This document shows, in pieces, positions 5,030-16,560 of a stretch of 64,000 nucleotides of DNA; the stretch's first letter is position 1; each line of letters begins with the position of its first letter. Under the pieces are notes generated by a model. It saw only the letters and a list, made by a program, of their open reading frames with translations. It made no database searches and was not told the origin of the DNA. The translations under genes were made by a program, and so were the position numbers. Origin of the DNA: Solirubrobacteraceae bacterium (GTDB lineage Bacteria > Actinomycetota > Thermoleophilia > Solirubrobacterales > Solirubrobacteraceae); NCBI GenBank assembly GCA_035484215.1, contig DATHPE010000008.1, forward strand, positions 27,326 through 91,325, given 5' to 3'.

Positions 5030-5611
5030 ATGCCGAAGGTGACCTTCTACTTCGACCTGGGTTCGCCGTACGCGTACCTGGCCGCCGAGCGGCTGGACAC
5101 GCTGCTGCCCGAGCCGGTCGAGTGGCAGCCGATCCTGCTGGGCGGCCTGTTCAAGGCGACGGGGCGCAGCTCGTGGTCGCTGGGCGACGAGGGGCGCAGG
5201 CGGGCGGGCATGGCCGAGATCGAGCGCCGTGCCCGCGCGTACGGGCTGCCGCCGGTGCGCTGGCCGGAGCCGTGGCCGACGAACTACCTGACAGCGATGC
5301 TGGCTACGACGTTCGCGTTCAGGGCCGGGCGCGGGCGGGAGTTTGCGCTGCGGGCCTTTCGCAACGCTTTTCAGGAGGGGTCGGATCTGAGTGTGCCGGA
5401 GCGCGTGTTCGAGGTCGGCGGGCAGGTCGGGCTCGATCGGGATCGGCTGGAGGCGGCGACGCAGGATGCGGAGGTCAAACGGGCGCTGCGTGCGGCCACC
5501 GATGCGGCGTACGAGCTCGGCGTGATCGGTGTTCCGACGATCGCGATCGACGATGAGCTGTTCTGGGGCGACGATCGGCTCGAGGACGCCGCCGCGCATC
5601 TCAAGGCGTGA
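5030..5611 (+). CDS. DsbA-like thioredoxin-fold protein (2-hydroxychromene-2-carboxylate isomerase / GST-kappa family)
   Basis: FYFDLGSPYAYL N-terminus, WQPILLGG, GVIGVPT..IDDELFWGDDRL C-terminus. Confidence 0.88.
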   Translation: MPKVTFYFDLGSPYAYLAAERLDTLLPEPVEWQPILLGGLFKATGRSSWSLGDEGRRRAGMAEIERRARAYGLPPVRWPEPWPTNYLTAMLATTFAFRAGRGREFALRAFRNAFQEGSDLSVPERVFEVGGQVGLDRDRLEAATQDAEVKRALRAATDAAYELGVIGVPTIAIDDELFWGDDRLEDAAAHLKA

Positions 5612-5930
5612 TGGCGGGCGTGGTCGATCCGAGCACGCTGGCGGAGCCGATCGTGCAGGCGCCGATGGCCGGAGGGCCCGCCATGCCGAGCTGAGGATCG
5701 CCGTGAACGAGGTGGGCGGGCTGGGGTTCTTGGCCGCTGGCCATAGGCGGGCGCAGGATGTGCGCGAAGAGACGCCCGCGAGCGGCGAGGCAGGCGAGCC
5801 TGACATGCTTGTGGCAGTCAGCCGCTCTGTCCCGAGATCGGCACAGCTTGTGGTTTCCCGTGGAGGTCGCGCTGGCGCAGTTGCCTGGGGACGGGCTGAT
5901 GAGCTCGTTGACGCGCAATCGCCGCCGTGA
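5608..5930 (+). pseudogene. Nitronate monooxygenase-family remnant (frameshifted and truncated)
   Basis: Frame 1 reads PIVQAPMAGGP, then TGA at 5692-5694; the shifted frame continues ELRIAVNEVGGLGFLAAG. Together these match the family N-terminus; similarity then decays. Confidence 0.65.
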
Positions 5931-6035
5931 TCGCACGCTGAGGACGCCCAGCCCAAGCGTTGACTAGTCTTTCGAATCCGGTGAGGCGATGGGCGACACA
6001 GAAAGACGCGGGCTCGATGGCCGACGGCGGATCTC

Positions 6036-7412
6036 TTGACTAAGCATCGCAAGACGGCCAGGGTGATACCGGGCGCGCGACGGCTGATCATCTCAATGCG
6101 CGACCTCGGCTACGGCCCCACAGAGGCCATCGCGGATCTGGTCGACAATAGCGTCGCCGCGGGCGCTCATAGCGTGGAGATAACTCTCCACTTCGATGGT
6201 GGTGACTCCTGGATCCGGATCGCCGATGACGGTCGAGGGATGGACGCTGAGATGATCACGGAGGCGATGCGATACGGCGCGGCGCGCGATTACGGGGCCG
6301 ATGATCTCGGCAAGTTCGGGCTAGGCCTCAAGACGGCATCGATGTCCCAATGCCGTTGCCTCACTGTCGCGAGCCGAACCTCGAAGTCCGTGGCACGCGT
6401 GGAGGCGCGCCAACTCGACCTCGATTACATCGAGGACCACGATGCCTGGGACATCCTGATTGTCGGTGCTGCCGAACGCTCGGAGTCGCTCATCGGTCCC
6501 CTCAAGGAGCACCGCGGAACAGTTGTCCTCTGGGAGGACCTCGATCGGATCCTGACCTACCAGGACCCTGGCGGCGGTTGGGCGCGTCGTCACATGATCA
6601 AGCTCGCCGAGCGCCTTGACGCGCATCTAGGAATGGTGTTCCACAGATTTCTTGCTGGGGAGGTGCCGCGCAAGAAGCTCAAGATCACGATCAACGATGT
6701 GATGGTCGATCCGTGGGATCCGTTCGCACGCGACGAGCCGCAGACGGAGGCCGGCAGATCCGAGGATGTCGAGCTCAACACCGCCGCCGGTTCGGGGATC
6801 GTGCACTTCGCCCCGTACACCCTTCCCCCGAAGGCGAGCTTCAGCAGCGATCCGGCATGGCGGCGGATGTCAGGCCCAAATTCCTGGAATCGCCAGCAAG
6901 GATTTTACATCTACCGAGCCAGCCGCTTGATCCAAAGCGGTGGCTGGTCGAACATGCGCACCGCTGATGAGCACACCAAGCTCGCCCGGATTGCGCTCCT
7001 CTTCTCCCCCGAGCTCGATGCGGCCTTCGGGATCAACGTTGCGAAGATGCGAGTAACGCTTCCCCCCGAGCTGAGCGATCGAATCGAGGCACCGGTGAAT
7101 AGGGCGGTCAAGCGTGCCCGCACCGTTTACGACGCCAAGCCCGACCAAGCAAGGCCCCAGAGGCCTTCCGGGAAAGCGACGGACGCCGCGGCGGCGCGCG
7201 GGCCTGGCTCGCACGGGAACGGTCATGTGGGTGAAAGCATCGTGAGCGGCGACGAACACCGTGCGGTCGCGGCCACCATTACGGTCGCTCAGATGCGTCG
7301 AGAGGCTCTGGAGAGCGCCGCAGGCGCTGCAGGGGAGCAGGCCGCGCTCAGGAGGATCATCAACGCACTCTCCAAAGAGGCACCAGAGGTAGCGAGAGAC
7401 CTTGGCTTCTGA
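6036..7412 (+). CDS. MORC/MutL-like GHKL ATPase (HATPase_c_3 type, MzaA-like), copy A
   Basis: ADLVDNS (N box), DDGRGM (G1), LGKFGLGLKTAS (G2), GTVVLW, QGFYIYR..RLIQ.GGW. Confidence 0.9.
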   Translation: MTKHRKTARVIPGARRLIISMRDLGYGPTEAIADLVDNSVAAGAHSVEITLHFDGGDSWIRIADDGRGMDAEMITEAMRYGAARDYGADDLGKFGLGLKTASMSQCRCLTVASRTSKSVARVEARQLDLDYIEDHDAWDILIVGAAERSESLIGPLKEHRGTVVLWEDLDRILTYQDPGGGWARRHMIKLAERLDAHLGMVFHRFLAGEVPRKKLKITINDVMVDPWDPFARDEPQTEAGRSEDVELNTAAGSGIVHFAPYTLPPKASFSSDPAWRRMSGPNSWNRQQGFYIYRASRLIQSGGWSNMRTADEHTKLARIALLFSPELDAAFGINVAKMRVTLPPELSDRIEAPVNRAVKRARTVYDAKPDQARPQRPSGKATDAAAARGPGSHGNGHVGESIVSGDEHRAVAATITVAQMRREALESAAGAAGEQAALRRIINALSKEAPEVARDLGF

Positions 7413-10113
7413 ACCTGGCGCCGACGCCTACCTACGCGTCGTGAACACCGCACTGGACTCGGGTGTTCACCCATCCTTCGAGGACGCGCTGACCGCGATC
7501 GTGCCCGCGGCGATGCGAAGCACGGTCCGTGAGCTTCACGAACAGCAAACGACACAGCAGATCAAGCGAGTGCGCGGGGTGGCGGTGGATGGCGGTCCCA
7601 AGGCCTGGTTCGCCGGTTGGGATCCAGCCGAAAGATATTACTGGCCCCGTCAGCGACGGTATCTGCTCGACCAGATTGGCAGAAGCCCCGAGGCTGTCGA
7701 GGCAACAGATGACGACAGTGACCGCGTCCTGTCCTATCTCGAGGATCCACGCGACAGTGGTCCCGATACCTTCAATACACGTGGGCTCGTGATCGGCCAC
7801 GTACAGAGCGGCAAGACCGAGAACTTCAGCGCCCTCATCGCGAAGGCGGCGGATGTCGGTTATCAGGTCATCATCGTCCTCGCAGGGGTCCACAACGGGC
7901 TGCGCCAGCAGACGCAGCGCCGACTTGAGCGAGAGCTCGGGCTCGAGAACGTGACCCCCGGCGTCGGTCTTCCTGAGCCCGGTCTTCGCTGGAATAACCC
8001 GACTACTGCCGACCTGCACGGCGACTTCGTTCCGGGTACCAGCGACCCGAGCATCCTCCAGGGTAACGAGAAGGTCATCTTCATCGTCAAGAAGTGGCAC
8101 ACCGTACTCGAGAGGCTGATCCGGTTCATAAGAGATGCGGAGGCACCGTCAAACCTGCCGGTGTTGGTGATCGACGACGAGGCCGACCAAGCCTCTGTCA
8201 ACACAGGCGGCAACAGGCAGCCGCTCAGTGACCTGATCGATGCCGACGACCCGCCCGTGGACTTGGAGGACGAGACCGATCCGTCGACTACCAACCGCCT
8301 CATCCGTGACCTGCTGACCCTCTTTCCCCGCGTCGCCTACGTGGCCTACACCGCGACGCCCTTCGCGAACGTGCTCATCGACCACCGTGCGGAGGATCGC
8401 GAGGTCTACGAAGACCTATATCCCCGTGACTTCCTGCTCACGCTGTTCCCCCGCCCAGGATATGTCGGAGCTTCCCGCCTGTTCGGCCACGACAGCCTGG
8501 ACGGCACGCCCGAGGGCACGGCCGAGGGCCTCGATGTCATTCGATTCATCCCCGAAGTCGACCTGCCGATCGTGACTCCCCAGGGTGTGAAGCTTGTCGA
8601 CTTCGTACCCGGGATGCCGCCGTCACTCGACGAAGCGATCGTGGACTGGCTGCTGGCTACCGGTGGACTGCTGGCACGCGCGGGCCGTGACCACCCCTCC
8701 TCCATGCTGATCCACATCCACCAGCGTACCGACGTTCAGAACGCACTGGCGCCACAGGTCGCGGATGCGGTGCGCGCTCTGCGCAACGAGTGGCGTTACG
8801 ACAGAGACGGACCCCTGCGCGAGCAGATGCGGGCCCGGTGGGACGATGACTTCCGGACAGTCACCCGCCGGATAGACGCTGACCGCGACATGCAGTTCGA
8901 CGACATCGAGGAGCACATCGACAAACTGCTCAAGGATGGGGTGTCGGTGCTCGCGCTGAACTCGCGGTCGACAGACGTGCTCGATTACGAGCAGGACCCC
9001 AATATAAAGGCCGTGCTCATCGGTGGAAACCGCCTCTCACGAGGCATGACGCTCGAAGGCCTCACCGTCTCCTATTACGTACGCGAAACCCCCTACATGG
9101 ACACGCTGCTGCAGATGGGCCGCTGGTTCGGCTACCGTGAGTGGTATGTCGACCTGACACGTCTGTGGACAACGCCAACGCTCGCGAGCTGGTTCCGCGA
9201 CATATCCCTCCGCGAGGATGAGCTTCGCGAGCAGATCATGCAGGCTGAGCTCGAGCACCTCTCCCCGCTGCAGGTCGGCTACCGCATCCGGTCACATCCC
9301 GCGATGATGGTCACTGCCCAGAACAAGATCGGTGCGGGACGCCAAGAGCGGCTGTCTTACGCCGGTCGCATGATCCAGACGACACGTTTCCGACTCCACG
9401 AGCGAGAGTGGCTCGAGGAAAACTTCGCGGCCGCTCGCGAACTCTTGGGCGGACTCGGCGAGCCCGGGAGAGATCCAAGCGGGGTGCCGCTCTGGAATAA
9501 CGTCCCATGGGAGTCCGTTCACAGATTTCTGAGTCGCTACCGTACCGTGCAGGATCGGACCTCGTTCGATGCGGAGGCGGCAGCCAGCTACCTTGAGGCA
9601 CAGGTACGCCACCACGAGCTTGTGCGCTGGAGTGTCGCCATCGCGGAGCAGACGCGGCCCGTCGAGCGGCTCGGCTCTGTCGATTTCGAAATCGACGACG
9701 TCGAGCCTGTGAACGCAATCTCACGCACCCGCCTGAAGAGTGACATTAACTCGATTGGTGTCCTGACCAATCCGGCGCAAAGCGGCGGGGCGACGCGGCG
9801 AGGAGACGAGGAGATCGGACTCACCGACGAGGACATTCTGCGCGCACGGCAGGAATTCGGTGACGAGAAGTACGAGCGCATACGCGACGCGCTCCTCGCA
9901 CAGCGCACCTCAGAGGAAGGACTGCTGGTTCTCTACCCCATCAGCCGCTACTCGCTGCCTCGCCCGGCGAGCAGCACACGCCTCGCGCTGTTCGACGACC
10001 CCCACCAAGGGGGTGAGACCGTGATCGGAGTCGCGCTCGGCTTTCCGCCATCTGCCAGCGAGGCCACGATCGAATATGTCGCCGGTTCGGTTGCACAGGA
10101 GAAAGACGAGTGA
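7402..10113 (+). CDS. Z1-domain protein with SF2 helicase-like N-terminus (MzaB-like)
   Basis: GHVQSGKT, LVIDDEADQAS, YTATP, IGGNRLSRGMTLEGL, DTLLQMGRWFGYR; TTG start overlapping the MORC end. Confidence 0.9.
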   Translation: MASEPGADAYLRVVNTALDSGVHPSFEDALTAIVPAAMRSTVRELHEQQTTQQIKRVRGVAVDGGPKAWFAGWDPAERYYWPRQRRYLLDQIGRSPEAVEATDDDSDRVLSYLEDPRDSGPDTFNTRGLVIGHVQSGKTENFSALIAKAADVGYQVIIVLAGVHNGLRQQTQRRLERELGLENVTPGVGLPEPGLRWNNPTTADLHGDFVPGTSDPSILQGNEKVIFIVKKWHTVLERLIRFIRDAEAPSNLPVLVIDDEADQASVNTGGNRQPLSDLIDADDPPVDLEDETDPSTTNRLIRDLLTLFPRVAYVAYTATPFANVLIDHRAEDREVYEDLYPRDFLLTLFPRPGYVGASRLFGHDSLDGTPEGTAEGLDVIRFIPEVDLPIVTPQGVKLVDFVPGMPPSLDEAIVDWLLATGGLLARAGRDHPSSMLIHIHQRTDVQNALAPQVADAVRALRNEWRYDRDGPLREQMRARWDDDFRTVTRRIDADRDMQFDDIEEHIDKLLKDGVSVLALNSRSTDVLDYEQDPNIKAVLIGGNRLSRGMTLEGLTVSYYVRETPYMDTLLQMGRWFGYREWYVDLTRLWTTPTLASWFRDISLREDELREQIMQAELEHLSPLQVGYRIRSHPAMMVTAQNKIGAGRQERLSYAGRMIQTTRFRLHEREWLEENFAAARELLGGLGEPGRDPSGVPLWNNVPWESVHRFLSRYRTVQDRTSFDAEAAASYLEAQVRHHELVRWSVAIAEQTRPVERLGSVDFEIDDVEPVNAISRTRLKSDINSIGVLTNPAQSGGATRRGDEEIGLTDEDILRARQEFGDEKYERIRDALLAQRTSEEGLLVLYPISRYSLPRPASSTRLALFDDPHQGGETVIGVALGFPPSASEATIEYVAGSVAQEKDE

Positions 10114-11132
10114 ATACGGCCGACCTAGACGCAGCTTGGCGAGCCGTCGATACGCCGGCCGTGGCTGGTGGCCTAGCGGGCAAGCCCGCGCCCGGCCTCG
10201 ACCCAGAGCTCGGTGTACTACTGGCGCTCGACTCAAGGCAGCTCCGCCACATCCTCATCCCGGTCGATGAGGCGGCTGAGCCGCCGGCGACAGTCGCGAC
10301 CAAGGGCTTGGAGGTCACCGTTGATGATCTACAGGCTGATGACAGGCCTCCCAGACGCTACCTCGACATCGCGTGCCGCGATACCACGATGCACGCGAAC
10401 TTCACCGTGGTCGCCGCCGAGATCGTTGAGGAGCTGGGAGCCGAGGCAGGCAACAGCCGGAAGATACTTGAGCGTATCCTCGCCCGTTGGCGCTGGTTCT
10501 GGGACACGCCGCCGGAGGGGCTCACGGACGCGGAGGCCGTCGGCCTGTTCGGTGAGTTGTGGTTCTTGGAGTACTGGCTTGACCCGATCGACGATGCGGT
10601 GCTACAAGCGTGGACGGGTCCGAACCGCGACCGCCACGATTTCAAGTGGCCCGCCGCCTCAGTGGAGGTGAAGGCGACGCGAGCCCGAAGCGACGGGTCC
10701 GCGAGTCACCGTATTTCAGCACTCGAGCAGCTGGAAGATCCAGAGCGGGGTCAGCTGTATCTATTTAGCCTCCGCGTTAGGCCCGACCCGATTGCGGCGC
10801 ACAGTCTCAATGCGAGCGTCGAGCGGATCAGGCGAACGCTCTCCGATCGTGCCGAGCTATTGCATGCATTCGACGAACGGCTCGCTCTGCTGGGCTACGG
10901 CCCCGTGCACCGAGATCGATACGACGCGCCGATTAGAGTCGTCGCAGAGGAGCTATTCCGAGTTGATGGGCAATTTCCTCGTCTCACGAGGAGCTCTTTC
11001 GTCGAGGGTGAGGTGCCCAGCGGGGTGGACCGCATCGGATACGATCTGGAGCTCGTCGCGTGCGTGCGTTGGCGTATCGCCACCGCCCCGGGTTCCCAGG
11101 CGCGGCAGCTGCGCGAGAGCTTGCACTCATGA
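10110..11132 (+). CDS. PD-(D/E)XK nuclease-like protein (DUF4420 type, MzaC-like)
   Basis: GLFGELWFL, WTGP..DRHDF, SVEVKAT, HRISALEQL; GTGA overlap with Z1. Confidence 0.85.
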   Translation: MNTADLDAAWRAVDTPAVAGGLAGKPAPGLDPELGVLLALDSRQLRHILIPVDEAAEPPATVATKGLEVTVDDLQADDRPPRRYLDIACRDTTMHANFTVVAAEIVEELGAEAGNSRKILERILARWRWFWDTPPEGLTDAEAVGLFGELWFLEYWLDPIDDAVLQAWTGPNRDRHDFKWPAASVEVKATRARSDGSASHRISALEQLEDPERGQLYLFSLRVRPDPIAAHSLNASVERIRRTLSDRAELLHAFDERLALLGYGPVHRDRYDAPIRVVAEELFRVDGQFPRLTRSSFVEGEVPSGVDRIGYDLELVACVRWRIATAPGSQARQLRESLHS

Positions 11133-11163
11133 CTCCGCACGGTGCCTCACATGGAAGACGGGT

Positions 11164-11655
11164 CTATTGCGCCGAGCGCTGGTGGTCGACCTTCGCTGTT
11201 GCAGCCAGCGTGGGCTGTGCCACGAAGTTCCTGACCACCTGAGCAATGCGTGCTGCGGCATCCTCGGGTGGCTCATGCTCCCACACGCGGATTACGTGCC
11301 ATCCACGGGCACGCAGCGCCGCATCAGCCCGACGGTCGCGCTCCACGTTGGCTTCCAGCTTCTCCTTCCACCATCGGCCGTTGCTCTTAGGGATGGTTCC
11401 GTGCGACGGGCAGCTGTGCCAGAAGCATCCGTCCACGAAGACCGCGGTCTTTGTGGGTCCGAAGACGACGTCTGGTGTAGTGCGTAGGTCGGGCTCTGCG
11501 CGGCGATGGATTCTGAATCGTAGGCCACGCCGGTGAAGTGCGGAGCGCAGGAGTATCTCAGGTGAGGTGTTCCGCGACCGGTTGGCCTTCATGGTTGCTG
11601 CTGCCGCCGGTGATGACGCCGGAGGCGTGCCTTGCTTGGCGCTTCGTCCTAGCAT
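11164..11655 (-). CDS. vsr: Very short patch repair endonuclease
   Basis: MKANRSRNTSPE, LHRRGLRFR, PDVVF, VFVDGCFWHSCP, WKEKLEANVERD, VWEHE. Confidence 0.93.
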   Translation of the reverse strand: MLGRSAKQGTPPASSPAAAATMKANRSRNTSPEILLRSALHRRGLRFRIHRRAEPDLRTTPDVVFGPTKTAVFVDGCFWHSCPSHGTIPKSNGRWWKEKLEANVERDRRADAALRARGWHVIRVWEHEPPEDAAARIAQVVRNFVAQPTLAATAKVDHQRSAQ

Positions 11656-12952
11656 CGTTCACGTGCGCCGAATCGTCGGGATCCGCGTTGGCGAGACGAA
11701 GCAGCACGGTATCGCGCAGGTATGGATCATGTCCGAGGACATCGTCGAGCGCTGCGATTATGGCAGGCCAGTCGCGACTGATGCTTATCGCCTCTGGGGC
11801 CGCGCGGAACGGTTGCTCTTTGAGTCCCGGATCGATCGCGTCGAGGTGATCCCTGTAGCGCTCCTGAGCGACCGCTACTACTCCTGAGGCGACGGTCCGA
11901 AGCGCAGGTCTGAGCTCGTCGGGGATCGATACGCGCATCTTCGCGACATCCACCCCGAACCCCTGCTCCTCGCCGAGGGGCAGGTCAACGGCGATGCGGG
12001 CCAGCTTCGCGTGCTCGTCGAGTGTCCGAAGACGATTCCAGCCACCTGGCTGGATGAGCCGGTCGCGACGGTAGATATAGAAGCCTTGGTGTCGGTTCCA
12101 GCGACGAGGTCCGGCAGCGGCCTGATGTGCCTCGGGCGATGAGAACAACTGCTGACTGGGGAGCACATACGGTTGCACATCCACGGCGACGGTTCGCCCT
12201 TCCGAGTCTTGGTACTCGAGCACCTGCCGCGGCAGCGTCCGCGTGTGCTGCTCATGCCTCGCAAATGGATCCCAGGCCTCTATACGGTCGCCATTGAGTG
12301 TCAGGACCAGCCGACCACGGCCGTCGTACGCCGTTTCGTCGAGGAAGCGGTGGAAGACCATGGCGAGGTGGTCGCGTATCTCGTCCACAGCCGTCCGCAG
12401 CACACGTGCTGTCATACCCTCGGTGGGCCTGCGCGGAAGCACGCGGTCCAGGTGCTCCCAGAGAACTACCGTTCCGTGGCCGGTCTCCGCGATCGGGCCT
12501 GTGAGACGCTCGGACGCGGCGCGGTGTGATAGGCGTTCAAGTTCCCAGGTGTCGCGTCTCAGGACTTCGTCGAGGTCCCAGCGGCGGATCGCCCTCTTGG
12601 ATGCTCCGCGTTCTCGCGACGCGATCGTGAGGCGTCGACACTGCGACAGCGAGGCCGTCTTGAGGCCGAGGCCGTAACGCCCCAGTGCTTCAGGTGAGTA
12701 GTCCACGCGCGTTCCGTAGCGCATGGCCTCATCGAGCCTGGCTGCCGACATGCCGATGCCATCATCGCTTACACGGATCCATGACTCTGAGCCATCTGCC
12801 ACGACATCCACGTTGACCGTGCTGGAGCTGGCATCGATGGCGTTGTCAACAAGATCTGCGACCGCGCTCGGCAGGTCATAGCCGATGTCACGAAGGGAAG
12901 ACATGAGACGACCTGCCGACGGCACGATCGCAATGCGGGATTCACGGCTCAT
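11558..12952 (-). CDS. MORC/MutL-like GHKL ATPase, copy B
   Basis: SLRDIGY, ADLVDNA, DDGIGM, LGRYGLGLKTASLSQC, QGFYIYRRDRLIQPGGW; ATGA overlap with the MTase stop. Confidence 0.9.
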   Translation of the reverse strand: MSRESRIAIVPSAGRLMSSLRDIGYDLPSAVADLVDNAIDASSSTVNVDVVADGSESWIRVSDDGIGMSAARLDEAMRYGTRVDYSPEALGRYGLGLKTASLSQCRRLTIASRERGASKRAIRRWDLDEVLRRDTWELERLSHRAASERLTGPIAETGHGTVVLWEHLDRVLPRRPTEGMTARVLRTAVDEIRDHLAMVFHRFLDETAYDGRGRLVLTLNGDRIEAWDPFARHEQHTRTLPRQVLEYQDSEGRTVAVDVQPYVLPSQQLFSSPEAHQAAAGPRRWNRHQGFYIYRRDRLIQPGGWNRLRTLDEHAKLARIAVDLPLGEEQGFGVDVAKMRVSIPDELRPALRTVASGVVAVAQERYRDHLDAIDPGLKEQPFRAAPEAISISRDWPAIIAALDDVLGHDPYLRDTVLLRLANADPDDSAHVNDARTKRQARHASGVITGGSSNHEGQPVAEHLT

Positions 12953-14922
12953 GCGGCCACGAGCCCTTCATGTTTGGCCCGTGGGGAGGCCAAACTGCGG
13001 TCGGCCTGAGCGGCTCTCGTTCGGCCCGTCGCACACCCGACGTGCAGTGGGCACATTTCGCAGCGAGGTTTTGCCGGGCGGCACAGCTCGCGCCCGAGGT
13101 CGAGCAACGCCCGATTGAATTCGGCGTCAGGACCTGCCGATCCGGCGAGACGGTGCAGATCTAGCCTGACCTGGAACCGTCGGGTATCTCCGTGTCGGGC
13201 CAGTCTCCCAGCGACACGCGCGGTCGTCTGATCGAGCAGCACCTGTCGGCGGCCGAATGCGAAGGTCAGGGCTGCTCCCCCTGTGTACTCGCCAACACCC
13301 GGGAGCAGCGGCAGCAAGGTCTCGTCGTTGGGGACAGCCCCGTCAAAGTAGGTCACGAGATCCTCCGCAAGCGCGAGAAGCGCGACGGCGCGCTCCTGCG
13401 TCAATCCGATCTCGGCCAAGAGGCGCTTCGGGTCGTCGTGAGCCAGCAGTGCAGTGGGACGTGGGGCGATCTCGGATAGCCTCTCGAACGTCCCCTCGGC
13501 ATCGCTCGGGCGCATCCGTGCCAGCACCAGCTCCGCTGCAAGCACCAGCCAGGGATCGCTACCATCCCTTCTCCATGGCGGCGACCACGTGTCTGACGCT
13601 CGGCGCCATCCGACTAGGAGCTCCCGGAAGCGCTCGCGCTCCGGCGACCGAAGCCGGCGGGACTGTTCGAGTGTCGTCTTCACGGACCGGCCTATGGCCT
13701 CACCGAGAAGCACCGGCACCGCATTTCCAACCTGGCGATACCTGTGTGACTGTGTGCCGGCGAAGCGGAAGTTGTCCGGGAAGCTCTGCACCCTTGCAGC
13801 CTCGCGAAGCGAGAGAGTCCGGTGCTGGTCAGGGTGTATGTACCAGTAGCCGTCCTTCGCGATGTGAGCGGTGATCGTACGACACAGCTCGGACCAGGAC
13901 AGACGCTTGTACTTGTCTGTGAAGACGTCTGAGCGATAACGACGTAGACGGTCCGGCAGATCAATATAGGTCTGCCCCTCGCCCAGCAGCCTGAAGGCCT
14001 CCATATCGTCTGGCCGCACGTCGCGGCATATATGTTCGAGCACGACATCGTGGTCCTCGGTCGGGAGATCCTGTCTCATGAGCCGCTGGTAGTCGGAAGT
14101 CTGGCGCCTGACGTCGTAGGGGAGGCGCTCGCAGCGTTGTGCCCTGGGAATTGGCGGTAGGTCGCCGATCGCGTCGCGGAGGGTCGTATATTGATCCGTG
14201 GGCTCGGGCCAGCGAGGGCGTCGGTTTCCGTCGATCCCTATGAGAATGAGCCGTTGGCGATGCTGGGGAATCCCGTACCGGAAGCCGTCGAGGACACGTG
14301 CCTCGACTTGGTAGCCGAGGGCGTCCAGCGAGTCATGAAGGCCCATCAGAACGGCGCCGTCGTTCCAGCGCACGAGGTCGGGCACGTTCTCTACGAGTAC
14401 CGCTGCTGGCCGGAGCGCCTCGACGACCTTTACGAACGATGACCACAGGTCGGCCCTGTGGTCGTGGGCGGCACGCTCGCCCGTGTCGACCAAGTCTCGG
14501 ATCCGCGAGCTGCCGGCGCGGCTGAACGGTTGGCAAGGCACGCCGCCTGCCAAGAGGTCGATCTGGCCGACCCCCCATACATTTAGTGTCGTGAGGAACT
14601 CTGTCGGGTCTGACAGGTCGCCGCACCAGCTGAGCCCGGGGAGGTTGGCATCGTGTGTGCGCACGGCCCACTGGTCTGAGTCTGCTCCGGCGAGTACGTC
14701 GAAGCCGGCGCGCTCGAGGCCGAGCGAGAGACCGCCGGCGCCGCAGAAGAGCTCGATCGCCGTTGGGCGTCCCGACGAGCGCGAGACGAAGGAACGAATG
14801 GCCTGCAGATCGGAGCCGTCGGGTGTCTGCGGGTGCTTCGCTGGCCGCTTGGGTGCACCCCGATGGTGCGCGACCATAGGTCGCGCACCTGTGCCACGTG
14901 CATTTTGTGTCGAATCGCCCAC
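12949..14922 (-). CDS. dcm: DNA (cytosine-5)-methyltransferase fused to a C-terminal HhH-GPD (MutY/MIG-like) domain; start codon uncertain
   Basis: Motifs I (ELFCGAGG), IV (GVPCQPFS), VI (ENV), VIII (PQHRQR), IX/X (REAARVQSFP, QVGNAVP); then PWLVLAAELVLAR, LPGVGEYT and CX6CX2CX5C. Confidence 0.9.
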   Translation of the reverse strand: MGDSTQNARGTGARPMVAHHRGAPKRPAKHPQTPDGSDLQAIRSFVSRSSGRPTAIELFCGAGGLSLGLERAGFDVLAGADSDQWAVRTHDANLPGLSWCGDLSDPTEFLTTLNVWGVGQIDLLAGGVPCQPFSRAGSSRIRDLVDTGERAAHDHRADLWSSFVKVVEALRPAAVLVENVPDLVRWNDGAVLMGLHDSLDALGYQVEARVLDGFRYGIPQHRQRLILIGIDGNRRPRWPEPTDQYTTLRDAIGDLPPIPRAQRCERLPYDVRRQTSDYQRLMRQDLPTEDHDVVLEHICRDVRPDDMEAFRLLGEGQTYIDLPDRLRRYRSDVFTDKYKRLSWSELCRTITAHIAKDGYWYIHPDQHRTLSLREAARVQSFPDNFRFAGTQSHRYRQVGNAVPVLLGEAIGRSVKTTLEQSRRLRSPERERFRELLVGWRRASDTWSPPWRRDGSDPWLVLAAELVLARMRPSDAEGTFERLSEIAPRPTALLAHDDPKRLLAEIGLTQERAVALLALAEDLVTYFDGAVPNDETLLPLLPGVGEYTGGAALTFAFGRRQVLLDQTTARVAGRLARHGDTRRFQVRLDLHRLAGSAGPDAEFNRALLDLGRELCRPAKPRCEMCPLHVGCATGRTRAAQADRSLASPRAKHEGLVAA

Positions 14923-15166
14923 GGCCGATGGAAACTACACGGCGTCTAGGACCGATCGTGGGGCGGCACCGGCGGAGATCCTCGAAAGACCTGTCCAAGC
15001 CAGTCGGCCCAGCTCGCAGACGAGGTACGAGGACAGATGTCGGCGCCGGGTAGACCGAAGGCACTTGTTCGTGGAGGCCACCGCGATGGGGACTATGGCC
15101 GCCATTCACGCGAGGTCACGTCGGCCTATACCGACGCGGTGATGGCCGATGTGATGTCCTCCACCG

Positions 15167-15718
15167 ATGCCGAACGCAAGACCCGCGACCTATCCGATGT
15201 GGAAGTTCTACCCATCTCGCATGGCTGCCCCCGAGTGGGTCCCGCGGGTGATAGCCGTGTTCGCACATGCAGCGAGCAAGATCGACTCCAAGTCCAATCA
15301 CGGCGTTAGCAGCGATGCGGTACTCGCTGCACTCCGTCCCGCGCTCGTCGAGCTCGGCTTTGCGATTGAGTCCAGCAAGAAGAAGGCGGACAAGATCTGG
15401 CGCCCAGTGCTTTTTGGCGAGGCCGGCGAATCAGTGGTCGCCTACGAGGTGGACGGCTTCCACCAAGAGCTCGGCATCATCCTCGAGATCGAGGCTGGTC
15501 GCGGCGCGATGAACAATGCCGACTATCGCGATCTCGTGAGAAGTAGCCTGATCGTCGACGCCGAGTTCCTGATACTCGGCCAGATGCTCGAATACAGAGC
15601 TGGCAAGAAAGACGCGGTCACCCCGAGCTACAAGCGGACACGCGACCAGCTTGACGCGATCTACGCAAGCGAGCGTCTCAAGCTACCTTTCAAGGGCGTC
15701 TTGCTCGTCGGCTATTGA
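15167..15718 (+). CDS. Putative type II restriction endonuclease (BglII/BstYI/BamHI-like PD-(D/E)xE fold)
   Basis: 183 aa; YEVDGF..GIILEIEAG..YRDL..SY..LPFKGVLLVGY pattern; divergent from the C5-MTase. Confidence 0.55.
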   Translation: MPNARPATYPMWKFYPSRMAAPEWVPRVIAVFAHAASKIDSKSNHGVSSDAVLAALRPALVELGFAIESSKKKADKIWRPVLFGEAGESVVAYEVDGFHQELGIILEIEAGRGAMNNADYRDLVRSSLIVDAEFLILGQMLEYRAGKKDAVTPSYKRTRDQLDAIYASERLKLPFKGVLLVGY

Positions 15719-15739
15719 ACTGGTTCTGCTTCGAATTGG

Positions 15740-15836
15740 ATGCCCTCCGGAAAGCCTCCAAGTCGCCATCGCGGCCCGCGAGCTTGAGCGGCTTGATGCC
15801 CGACCCGGGCGTGTACGGATTGAGGCGTTGATCCAT
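15740..15836 (-). pseudogene. Truncated N-terminus of an AAA/STAND-type ATP-binding protein
   Basis: MDQRLNPYTPGSGIKPLKLAGRDGDLEAF matches the NPY.PG.G..P..LAGR start of actinobacterial AAA ATPases; it stops before any Walker A motif. Confidence 0.6.
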
Positions 15837-15991
15837 CTCTATCTGTAAACGCAGACAAAAGCAGATGTTGCCGGTCGCGCGACGCGCGCTACCTGGTGGC
15901 ACGCATCATCGACCGTCGGGACCTGCACCGCGCCATCGACAGGCTCTGAGCCCAGGCCACCAGCATCGGCACGTCTACGATTGCCCGCCCA

Positions 15992-16327
15992 TCAGCCATG
16001 GCATTCGACGGCCACCTCGAGCGCCGCGCACACCTCCCGCATGCGGTCATCGCTCAGTCGTCCGAGGCGCTCCACGAGGACCGCGACCGACACGCTCTCC
16101 ACAGAGTCGAGGTTGATCGAGGATCGGCGGGGGACTGGATCGTCGTCGGGCTCTAGAACGACCTCGCTGGCCAGGCTGCGAATGGTGGTCGTGCATGGCG
16201 CGACAAGCGCTCGTCGCAAGCGAGGGATAGCCGCGTCGCGTGAGAGCACCACGACAGGCCGCCGGCCGATCTCCGGCAACTCACACCACCACATCTCTCC
16301 CCTCGCGGGAAGCGGGCCGCCGCTCAC
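15992..16327 (-). CDS. mazF: MazF/PemK endoribonuclease toxin
   Basis: [41 protein letters not shown]; GTGA overlap with the antitoxin. Confidence 0.9.
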
Positions 16328-16560
16328 GATGCCGCGGCCGCCTCTCGGAACGACGCCAGATCGCCCCACGCATCGGGCTCCTCGAGAGGGTGCTTGTCGT
16401 AGGCCGCGTATGCAGCATCGATCTCGGCCGCACGATGGCGGTCCAAGAGCGCCGCGAGCGCTTGGTCGAGGACGGCGGCATCCGTCAGCGGCGCGAGTGC
16501 CTGACGGGCCCTCTCCAAGAGCTGCTCGTCAACGGTAGTGCTCACCCTCGTCCTTGCCAT
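16324..16560 (-). CDS. mazE: Ribbon-helix-helix antitoxin (MazE5-like)
   Basis: [46 protein letters not shown]; directly upstream of mazF. Confidence 0.85.

Follow-up and report, generated by a model that had tools for sequence, protein, structure and literature searches.

A low-G+C island of a Solirubrobacteraceae bacterium encodes two MORC-type ATPases, one in each arm of a predicted restriction-modification system

The 64,000-nucleotide stretch of DNA analyzed here (hereafter the window; contig DATHPE010000008.1 of a Solirubrobacteraceae bacterium, assembly GCA_035484215.1) has a guanine plus cytosine (G+C) content of ~72% and contains an island of 62-66% G+C at roughly 5,600-16,000. Positions 6036-14922 are filled by six tightly packed genes, three per strand, which form two convergent arms, each with a MORC-type ATPase of its own, the subject of this work. 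The forward-strand or restriction arm begins with MORC_A (6036..7412; 458 amino acids (aa), TTG start), a GHKL+S5 ATPase, followed by a MzaC-like DEAD-Z1 superfamily 2 (SF2) helicase-like motor (7402..10113; 903 aa; Pfam Z1, 212 bits) and a MzaD-like DUF4420 PD-(D/E)XK nuclease (10110..11132; Pfam DUF4420, 178.9 bits). These genes overlap by 11 nt (MORC_A/Z1) and 4 nt (Z1/DUF4420) and are predicted to be a translationally coupled operon. The reverse-strand or modification/repair arm consists of a C5 cytosine methyltransferase with a C-terminal HhH-GPD glycosylase domain (Dcm; 12949..14922; 657 aa; Pfam DNA_methylase, 207.6 bits), MORC_B as the middle gene (11558..12952; 464 aa, ATG start), also a GHKL+S5 ATPase, and a Vsr very-short-patch T:G mismatch endonuclease (11164..11655; NCBIfam TIGR00632 and Pfam Vsr). 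An ATGA at 12949-12952 contains both the Dcm stop and the MORC_B start, and Vsr begins inside the 3' end of MORC_B, with 11592 a likelier start than 11655; these overlaps suggest that dcm, morcB and vsr are co-translated. The stop codons of the two arms (11132 and 11164) are separated by 31 bp. Pfam, NCBIfam and PADLOC agree on the gene identities.

The original prediction described the two ATPases as full-length paralogous MORCs, one per arm, with shared ordered motifs and different short C-terminal tails, and this description stands. MORC_A is coupled to Z1-DUF4420 and MORC_B lies between Dcm-HhH-GPD and Vsr; the two open reading frames (ORFs) encode proteins that are 46% identical over 341 aa (BLASTP, E 3e-96), and both match Pfam HATPase_c_3 (99.8 bits for MORC_A and 100.3 bits for MORC_B, with a cut-off of 25). 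Their alignment contains all of the proposed motifs (ADLVDN, DDGxGM, GLGLKTASxSQCRxLTxASR and WNRxQGFYIYRxxRLIQxGGWxxxRTxDEHxKLARI), and GHKL motifs I-IV (A[VI]ADLVDN, DDGxGM, GxFGLGLK and GTVV) are found in MORC_A, MORC_B and all 112 relatives in the phylogeny described below. A degenerate pseudo-ATPase for one of the copies is ruled out, since all motifs are intact in both. Throughout this set, the catalytic-base position of motif I is occupied by Asp (ADLVDN), not Glu, which may make ATP hydrolysis slow or regulated. The S5-domain signature GhXhhpXXRhl, by which Iyer, Abhiman & Aravind (2008, PMC2292703) defined the MORCs of prokaryotes and eukaryotes, reads GFYIYRASRLI in MORC_A and GFYIYRRDRLI in MORC_B and is kept in every clade. 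With the GHKL motifs, the S5 signature and a GHKL+S5 fold, both proteins have what is expected of prokaryotic MORCs. The C-terminal tails are each conserved within their own subfamily, as ...RREALExAAxxxGExxALxxIxxALxxxxPEVARDLG[WF] for MORC_A and AISISRDWPAIxxxVxxVLGxDxxLRDxLLxRLANADP for MORC_B.

AlphaFold2 (AF2) models of the two proteins (predicted local distance difference test, 79.5 for MORC_A and 71.7 for MORC_B) have the same layout of GHKL domain, S5 domain, long helix, disordered linker and small C-terminal helical bundle. The linker spans ~45 residues (about 374-415) in MORC_A and ~18 in MORC_B, and the bundle is modeled as three helices in the former and as a helical pair (391-422) in the latter. 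A Foldseek comparison of the MORC_A model with the PDB returns the ATPase modules of MORC3, SMCHD1, MORC4 and MORC2 first, and then the MutL N-terminal domain; the top matches have E 1e-14 and a template modeling score of about 0.5. By sequence, the only solved relatives are the MutL N-terminal domain, which is the best match (E 8e-10), and MORC4/MORC2. The eukaryotic MORC/SMCHD1 modules, the best structural matches, share the S5 motif and a link to cytosine methylation with the window proteins but are only 13-16% identical to them; the bacterial proteins lack CW and coiled-coil regions, and Asp replaces the catalytic-base Glu. The MutL model TIGR00585 gives 31.9 and 36.2 bits (cut-off, 180), matching only the first 50-90 residues, and no MutL C-terminal dimerization/endonuclease domain is found by Pfam in MORC_A or MORC_B, each of which ends in the small helical bundle. 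No nuclease domain was found in MORC_B by Pfam or in its AF2 model. The N-terminal strap and the ATP-lid, which make the GHKL dimer contacts, are nearly invariant between the two copies.

The partners of both ATPases carry readable catalytic signatures. Walker A (GHVQSGKT), Walker B with the DEAD box (VIDDEAD), and a Z1 motif (DTLLQMGRWFG; defined as DThhQXuRhFG in PMC2292703) within a Pfam Z1 domain occur in one chain of the Z1 protein, as in the DEAD-Z1 motors whose function is described in PMC5861437; among solved chains this protein has no detectable sequence match. The DUF4420 protein has the catalytic residues RHDF...VEVK, and no sequence-recognition module of the restriction arm's own is obvious from Pfam or NCBIfam. 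The methyltransferase scores 175 bits with NCBIfam dcm (cut-off, 100.65), and its residues 432-635 match mutY (88.8 bits) and nth (55.8 bits), both under the cut-offs; this HhH-GPD part is MutY/Nth/Mig-like and has an iron-sulfur (FeS)-cluster loop. Vsr passes the curated family cut-off (TIGR00632, 132.5 bits against 97.85) and is thus expected to be a T:G nickase.

To place the two copies in the context of their relatives, we used 79 related loci from a scan with one genome per species (80 counting the window), onto which the six window proteins were mapped by tblastn, with MORC genes detected by a profile built from the MORC alignment. Each copy retrieves thousands of homologues, and the best 120 matches, which are 51-97% identical to MORC_A and 54-100% identical to MORC_B, form lists without overlap. 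A maximum-likelihood tree of 112 MORCs places MORC_A in clade A (18 sequences, support 98) and MORC_B in clade B (13 sequences, support 99), which are old, separate lineages. Clade C (38 sequences, all from Actinomycetota) is Dcm-linked like clade B; clade Zd (23 sequences) is Z1-linked; clades S and T (15 sequences) comprise single-MORC systems from many phyla; and the five members of clade X are distant, with DUF4420 (three) or Z1 (one) downstream. A recent tandem or segmental duplication is ruled out by the >120 closer orthologues of each copy and by the separate, well-supported clades.

The clades track the neighboring genes closely. Z1 lies immediately downstream of the MORC in 55 of 56 cases (clade A, 18/18; S, 11/12; T, 3/3; Zd, 23/23), and Dcm, with or without HhH-GPD, lies immediately upstream of 12 of the 13 clade B MORCs. 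Clade C MORCs directly adjoin Dcm(-HhH-GPD) in 35 of 38 cases, 34 of them with Dcm downstream and nearly always convergent, and a co-directional Vsr is found directly upstream in 22 of the 38. On the basis of the tree and these neighborhoods, the Dcm-linked MORCs (B and C) and the Z1-linked MORCs (A, Zd and X) are separate lineages. The sister group of clade B is the single-MORC clade S (support 93); a single clade of B plus C is not rejected by the approximately unbiased (AU) test (p = 0.23), so that a single origin of the Dcm-linked lineage is possible. In a plasmid collection, only distant MORC relatives (at most 40% identity) were found, including a lone MORC in plasmid neighborhood H3.

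Counting the window, 51 of the 80 loci have a Dcm-linked MORC, and in 46 of these Z1-DUF4420 is found within the 10 kb of flanking sequence fetched around each cassette. A second GHKL protein is present in 44 of these 46 loci: 27 have a profile-detected MORC upstream of Z1, 16 have a 'Type I' GHKL protein of 660 aa, and in one (L052) the second MORC is cut by the locus end. Two GHKL proteins are the norm for this mainly actinobacterial class of loci. Chance joining of unrelated loci, the objection that the original prediction itself had raised, does not describe these data: the histories of the two arms differ, yet the arms are paired in 46 of 51 loci. HhH-GPD-fused Dcm is found in 38 of the 51 loci with a Dcm-linked MORC versus 1 of the 29 without, and in that lone exception the locus end cuts off the expected place of the MORC. 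Every locus with a Dcm-linked MORC has Vsr and/or HhH-GPD. Among the 50 hosts with a Dcm-linked MORC, 45 are Actinomycetota, versus 7 among the 29 hosts that lack one (p = 3e-9 by Fisher's test, with no correction for phylogeny). Single-MORC systems, arranged as Dcm, Vsr, MORC, Z1, DUF4420 or in a variant of this order, dominate in other phyla, including Acidobacteriota, Planctomycetota, Spirochaetota, Verrucomicrobiota, Pseudomonadota and Woesearchaeota.

The Type I protein (L033:5385-7367, with homologues in 20 further loci) has no Pfam match, and an hhalign comparison with the MORC alignment gives a nonsignificant probability of 3.7%; GHKL motifs I-IV are readable in it as LVREAxQNxWDA, DxGTxGLxGP, GGxxGyGK and GTT, with the Glu of motif I kept (REAxQN). 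Three further MORC_B orthologues on metagenome contigs are likewise found in Dcm, MORC_B, Vsr cassettes, except that in L082 the position of Vsr is taken by an 85-aa ORF of unknown family. Two of these cassettes lie upstream of Type I arms, and the third lies upstream of an arm with an 801-aa HATPase_c_3 protein. In that locus (L084:8052-19109), Dcm (650 aa), MORC_B and Vsr are succeeded by the 801-aa HATPase_c_3 protein, Z1 (two ORFs), DUF4420 and AIPR, a Mza-like AIPR arm joined to the Dcm-MORC_B-Vsr cassette.

The nearest loci to the system of the window come from metagenome-assembled genomes (MAGs) of Solirubrobacterales, and the system itself is found in soil metagenomes. In two of these MAG loci (L001:6488-15477 and L002:6708-15101), all five genes are co-directional, and Vsr is absent; the L001 MORC_A, from a long-read MAG, is apparently frameshifted (10001-10384 and 10369-11748). 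In L073:9860-10120, the reading frame runs from the FeS loop of HhH-GPD to the MORC_B start without a stop, owing to either a natural fusion of glycosylase and MORC or a sequencing indel; dcm of this MAG also contains a frameshift, and the read-through was not used as Rosetta-stone evidence.

The two arms are exchanged as units. The combinations A+B, A+C, Zd+B, Zd+C and X+C are all seen, and similarity to the window co-varies within arms (Z1-arm MORC versus Z1, rho 0.61; Dcm-arm MORC versus Dcm, rho 0.40) but not significantly across them (rho 0.25, -0.23 and 0.24). The restriction arm of the window is closest to that of L001 (MORC_A, 75%; Z1, 83%; DUF4420, 74%), whereas its modification arm is closest to that of L074 (Dcm, 77%; MORC_B, 64%; Vsr, 64%), the restriction arm of which is of Type I, unlike that of the window. 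Five cassettes (L044, L048, L051, L058 and L060) have no Z1 arm within 10 kb; an FtsK/HerA-like operon lies by the cassette in L044, a HEPN-DUF4011 helicase in L048, and a paraMORC, SFII helicase and DUF1998-type protein in L051, and no other module was identified beside the cassettes of L058 and L060. In L044:1182-13786, on a complete Mycobacterium chromosome, Vsr is directly preceded by genes for an AAA_16 ATPase, a 426-aa protein and an FtsK/HerA-like protein of 1692 aa and is followed by MORC_C and a convergent Dcm, with no Z1 within 10 kb. In L051:8073-19234, a DISARM-like arm follows Dcm-HhH-GPD and MORC_B in place of Z1-DUF4420; it encodes a HATPase_c_3+HATPase_c protein of 733 aa, a 1322-aa SFII helicase and a 579-aa protein of the MZB/DUF1998 type.

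The flanks of the island are of a housekeeping character: the left one encodes alanine dehydrogenase and a DsbA-like isomerase, the right one a sigma/anti-sigma pair. No tRNA gene was found in the window. A small low-G+C ORF (15167..15718, forward strand, 183 aa), divergent from dcm, is of uncertain membership in the system; it has no Pfam match, and its best PDB sequence match (E 0.53) is not meaningful. Its single homologue in the 79 loci (L044, 13346-13786; 53% identity) lies directly upstream of dcm, and the ORF may at times accompany the methylase cassette as an accessory; the idea that it encodes the type II nuclease cognate to the methylase finds no support in Pfam or PDB sequence matches, and the ORF recurs in only 1 of 79 loci.

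Positions 5400-16400 are found without differences on one contig of a separately made Logan assembly of a soil DNA run, which rules out an assembly chimera; this contig is not independent biological support, because the run may be the window's own sample. In a metatranscriptome from soil (run X3), both arms are matched at 99% or better by 21 contigs, some of which span the Vsr/MORC_B and MORC_B/Dcm junctions; within 5400-16400, no contigs of this run were found over 15309-16400. A single C>G difference occurs, at 13084. Junction matches with short (21-nt) sides in read-archive contigs were disregarded as cross-matches.

The locus as a whole has the composition of the type-3 MORC restriction-modification operons of Iyer et al. 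(PMC2292703), namely an S5-motif MORC, a Z1-motif SFII helicase and a restriction endonuclease-fold protein (now DUF4420), often accompanied by a cytosine methylase and Vsr, both of which are present in the window. Only MORC_A adjoins Z1, and MORC_B adjoins Dcm and Vsr. That survey treated MORC-methylase neighborhoods without a helicase as a separate minority class and described a second GHKL protein in some operons only as paraMORC1, whereas the second GHKL protein of the window is a true MORC from a lineage specific to Dcm, and the methylase of the window is fused to a glycosylase. The locus is a recurrent variant, for the most part actinobacterial, of the MORC/Z1 restriction-modification family predicted in 2008. 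In the literature searched, no characterized prokaryotic MORC from a Z1-type system was found, nor any paper singling out a Dcm-dedicated MORC lineage or a two-GHKL rule or examining this layout experimentally.

Among named defense systems, the closest relative by best-scoring models is Mza (mzaABCDE), an anti-phage system that PMC9523054 calls validated in a passage citing Gao et al. 2020; a text search of Vassallo 2022 for Mza gave no match. The NCBIfam and PADLOC models of Mza share with the window a MutL/MORC-like ATPase, Z1 and a DUF4420 PD-(D/E)XK protein in the same order, and MzaB, MzaC and MzaD are the best-scoring models for the window proteins, but all three equivalog cut-offs are failed (MzaB, 254.7 for MORC_A and 260.1 for MORC_B against 850; MzaC, 436.4 against 1500; MzaD, 115.2 against 420). 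No AIPR (MzaE) match was found by Pfam in seven island proteins and no match to the MzaA or MzaE models in the six scanned with NCBIfam; in their stead, the window has the Dcm-glycosylase, Vsr and a second MORC. Membership in Mza is thus ruled out by the curated cut-offs and the absence of AIPR and MzaA, and the locus should not be filed there. A putative Z1/DUF4420/C5-methylase defense system with Types I and II has been described by Miller, Stern & Burstein (2022, PMC9523054), in which the Type I arm comprises Z1, DUF4420, a 660-704-aa MORC-like protein, a protein of about 300 aa (297aa) and DUF6339. The three core genes are common to the window, and many of the related loci are Type I with the same Dcm-MORC-Vsr cassette; the window differs in its ordinary 458-aa MORC upstream of Z1 and in lacking DUF6339, the 300-aa partner and AIPR, and the Dcm-linked MORC is not among the components that these authors list. 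CglI and NgoAVII (PMC5861437) also pair a DEAD-Z1 helicase-like motor with a methyltransferase, and ATP-driven translocation of their H-subunit on double-stranded DNA (dsDNA) activates the partner nuclease, but that nuclease is a PLD/B3 R-subunit and there is no GHKL partner; the window has DUF4420 and no PLD/B3. Finally, E. coli MutL is likewise a GHKL+S5 ATPase that has a Vsr nickase and a Dcm methylase as its counterparts, although the MORCs of the window are encoded in a mobile island and not in the core genome.

Taken together, these comparisons lead us to propose, with moderate confidence, that MORC_A and MORC_B are separate, arm-specific clamps and that MORC_B plays a MutL-like part for the methylase/T:G-repair module. 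The low-G+C island would then be a two-arm MORC-type restriction-modification system serving in defense, with each MORC acting as its own ATP-driven dimeric clamp. By analogy with the H-subunit of CglI, MORC_A would couple DNA engagement to the Z1 dsDNA translocase and the DUF4420 nuclease, which would attack DNA without the Dcm mark. MORC_B would serve the methylase cassette as MutL serves Vsr in E. coli, where MutL is established to stimulate Vsr (cited in PMC2292703), and would organize or license the processing of the T:G mismatches that arise from deamination of 5-methylcytosine, through a Vsr nick and/or the fused glycosylase. Arm-specific roles are favored by the separate lineages, the free reassortment of the arms, the lack of cross-arm co-variation in similarity and the existence of cassettes that stand alone or beside a non-Z1 module. 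A MutL-like part is favored by the HhH-GPD-fused Dcm and Vsr found with the Dcm-linked MORCs and by the prevalence of Actinomycetota among their hosts; MutS-MutL is absent from almost all Actinobacteria, and NucS is found in two Thermoleophilia (PMC5290159). The original prediction had offered two options, a heterodimeric clamp that couples restriction to modification and repair, or a MutL-like role of the second copy for Vsr, and the comparative data fit the second better than an obligate heterodimer; the Vsr part of it held only partly, in that the constant neighbor of the Dcm-linked MORC is Dcm, and Vsr is found in 40 of 51 cassettes.

Several observations weigh against this proposal. Eleven of the 51 Dcm-MORC cassettes have no Vsr in the flank, making Dcm, not Vsr, the constant partner of these MORCs. 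In L035 and L036, a B-type MORC is the only GHKL protein of a Dcm-HhH-GPD, MORC, Z1, DUF4420 operon, which indicates that such a MORC is able to serve a restriction arm by itself, and in L001 and L002 MORC_B and MORC_A stand in tandem in one operon, an arrangement compatible with joint action. The tail of the Dcm-linked clade C is A-like, so the C-terminal tail does not simply encode arm identity, and the high conservation of strap and ATP-lid between the two copies makes heterodimers sterically plausible. Furthermore, the bias toward Actinomycetota is uncorrected for phylogeny or transfer barriers, the metatranscriptome signal is weak and of low depth, with DNA carry-over possible, and the mechanism itself is drawn from gene context and analogy.

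A broader and more tentative extension of the arm-specific proposal, which we consider possible but less likely than not, is that the Dcm-linked MORC lineage (B and C) is a portable surrogate of MutL, a GHKL matchmaker that would activate Vsr and/or a Mig-like glycosylase at T:G mismatches, would allow C5-methylation to be tolerated in Actinomycetota that lack MutL, and would be the bacterial root of the eukaryotic link between MORCs and cytosine methylation. MutS-MutL is absent from almost all Actinobacteria, and NucS is found in two Thermoleophilia (PMC5290159).

The heterodimeric clamp seems to us unlikely, although it survives better than the other alternatives. MORC_B on the side of Dcm and target recognition and MORC_A on the side of the Z1 motor and nuclease would be joined by GHKL N-terminal dimerization upon ATP binding, such that recognition of an unmethylated site is passed to the restriction arm or methylated self DNA exerts a veto. 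The nearly invariant strap and ATP-lid residues, the full ATP motifs of both copies, the linkage of the two arms in 46 of 51 loci, the tandem B and A genes of L001 and L002 and the lack of an obvious sequence-recognition module in the restriction arm are all consistent with such a pairing, but the arms reassort in all combinations without cross-arm co-variation, the GHKL partner on the restriction side can be a very different protein (the 660-aa type, with Glu in motif I, or the HATPase_c_3 protein of 801 aa), systems of other phyla commonly have a single MORC, and some cassettes have no Z1 arm at all. If true, a MORC heterodimer would offer a simple model of GHKL clamps that link DNA cleavage to an epigenetic mark.

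We regard as improbable a history in which two single-MORC systems were joined by recombination, or a restriction arm was swapped, leaving MORC_B as a redundant and dispensable relic of the donor of the methylase cassette. The different nearest relatives of the two arms would be expected from such a history, as would the B-type MORCs that stand alone in the Z1 systems L035 and L036 and the sister relationship of clade B to the single-MORC clade S (support 93). The Dcm-linked MORCs are, however, large and old lineages (13 sequences in clade B and 38 in clade C) with all catalytic motifs intact, and they have been retained beside at least four kinds of GHKL-bearing restriction arm, which argues that they are neither redundant nor decaying; the MORC_B gene of the window also keeps its overlap coupling with dcm and vsr and is matched by metatranscriptome contigs. 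Least probable, in our view very much so, is a self-contained restriction unit in which Dcm, MORC_B and a Vsr-fold nuclease form a split GHKL type II enzyme of the BbrUII/HgiDII type beside an independent MORC_A-Z1-DUF4420 system: Dcm-MORC(-Vsr) cassettes without a Z1 arm exist and MORC_B weakly matches NCBIfam restrict_BbrUII (NF050001; 32 bits, residues 27-185, versus 17.9 for MORC_A) and the PADLOC REase_II model, but the BbrUII match covers the GHKL domain only and is far under the cut-off of 550, MORC_B has no nuclease domain, Vsr passes the cut-off of its own curated family and 11 cassettes lack Vsr.

The arm-specific proposal amounts to a division of labor between a restriction clamp and a clamp for methylation and deamination repair. 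Prokaryotic MORCs are the presumed ancestors of the eukaryotic MORC chromatin ATPases, and a Dcm-linked MORC that stands in for MutL would, if true, be a precedent in bacteria for the action of MORC proteins on methylated cytosine. Such a replacement of MutL would also explain how very-short-patch repair may operate in bacteria without MutS and MutL.

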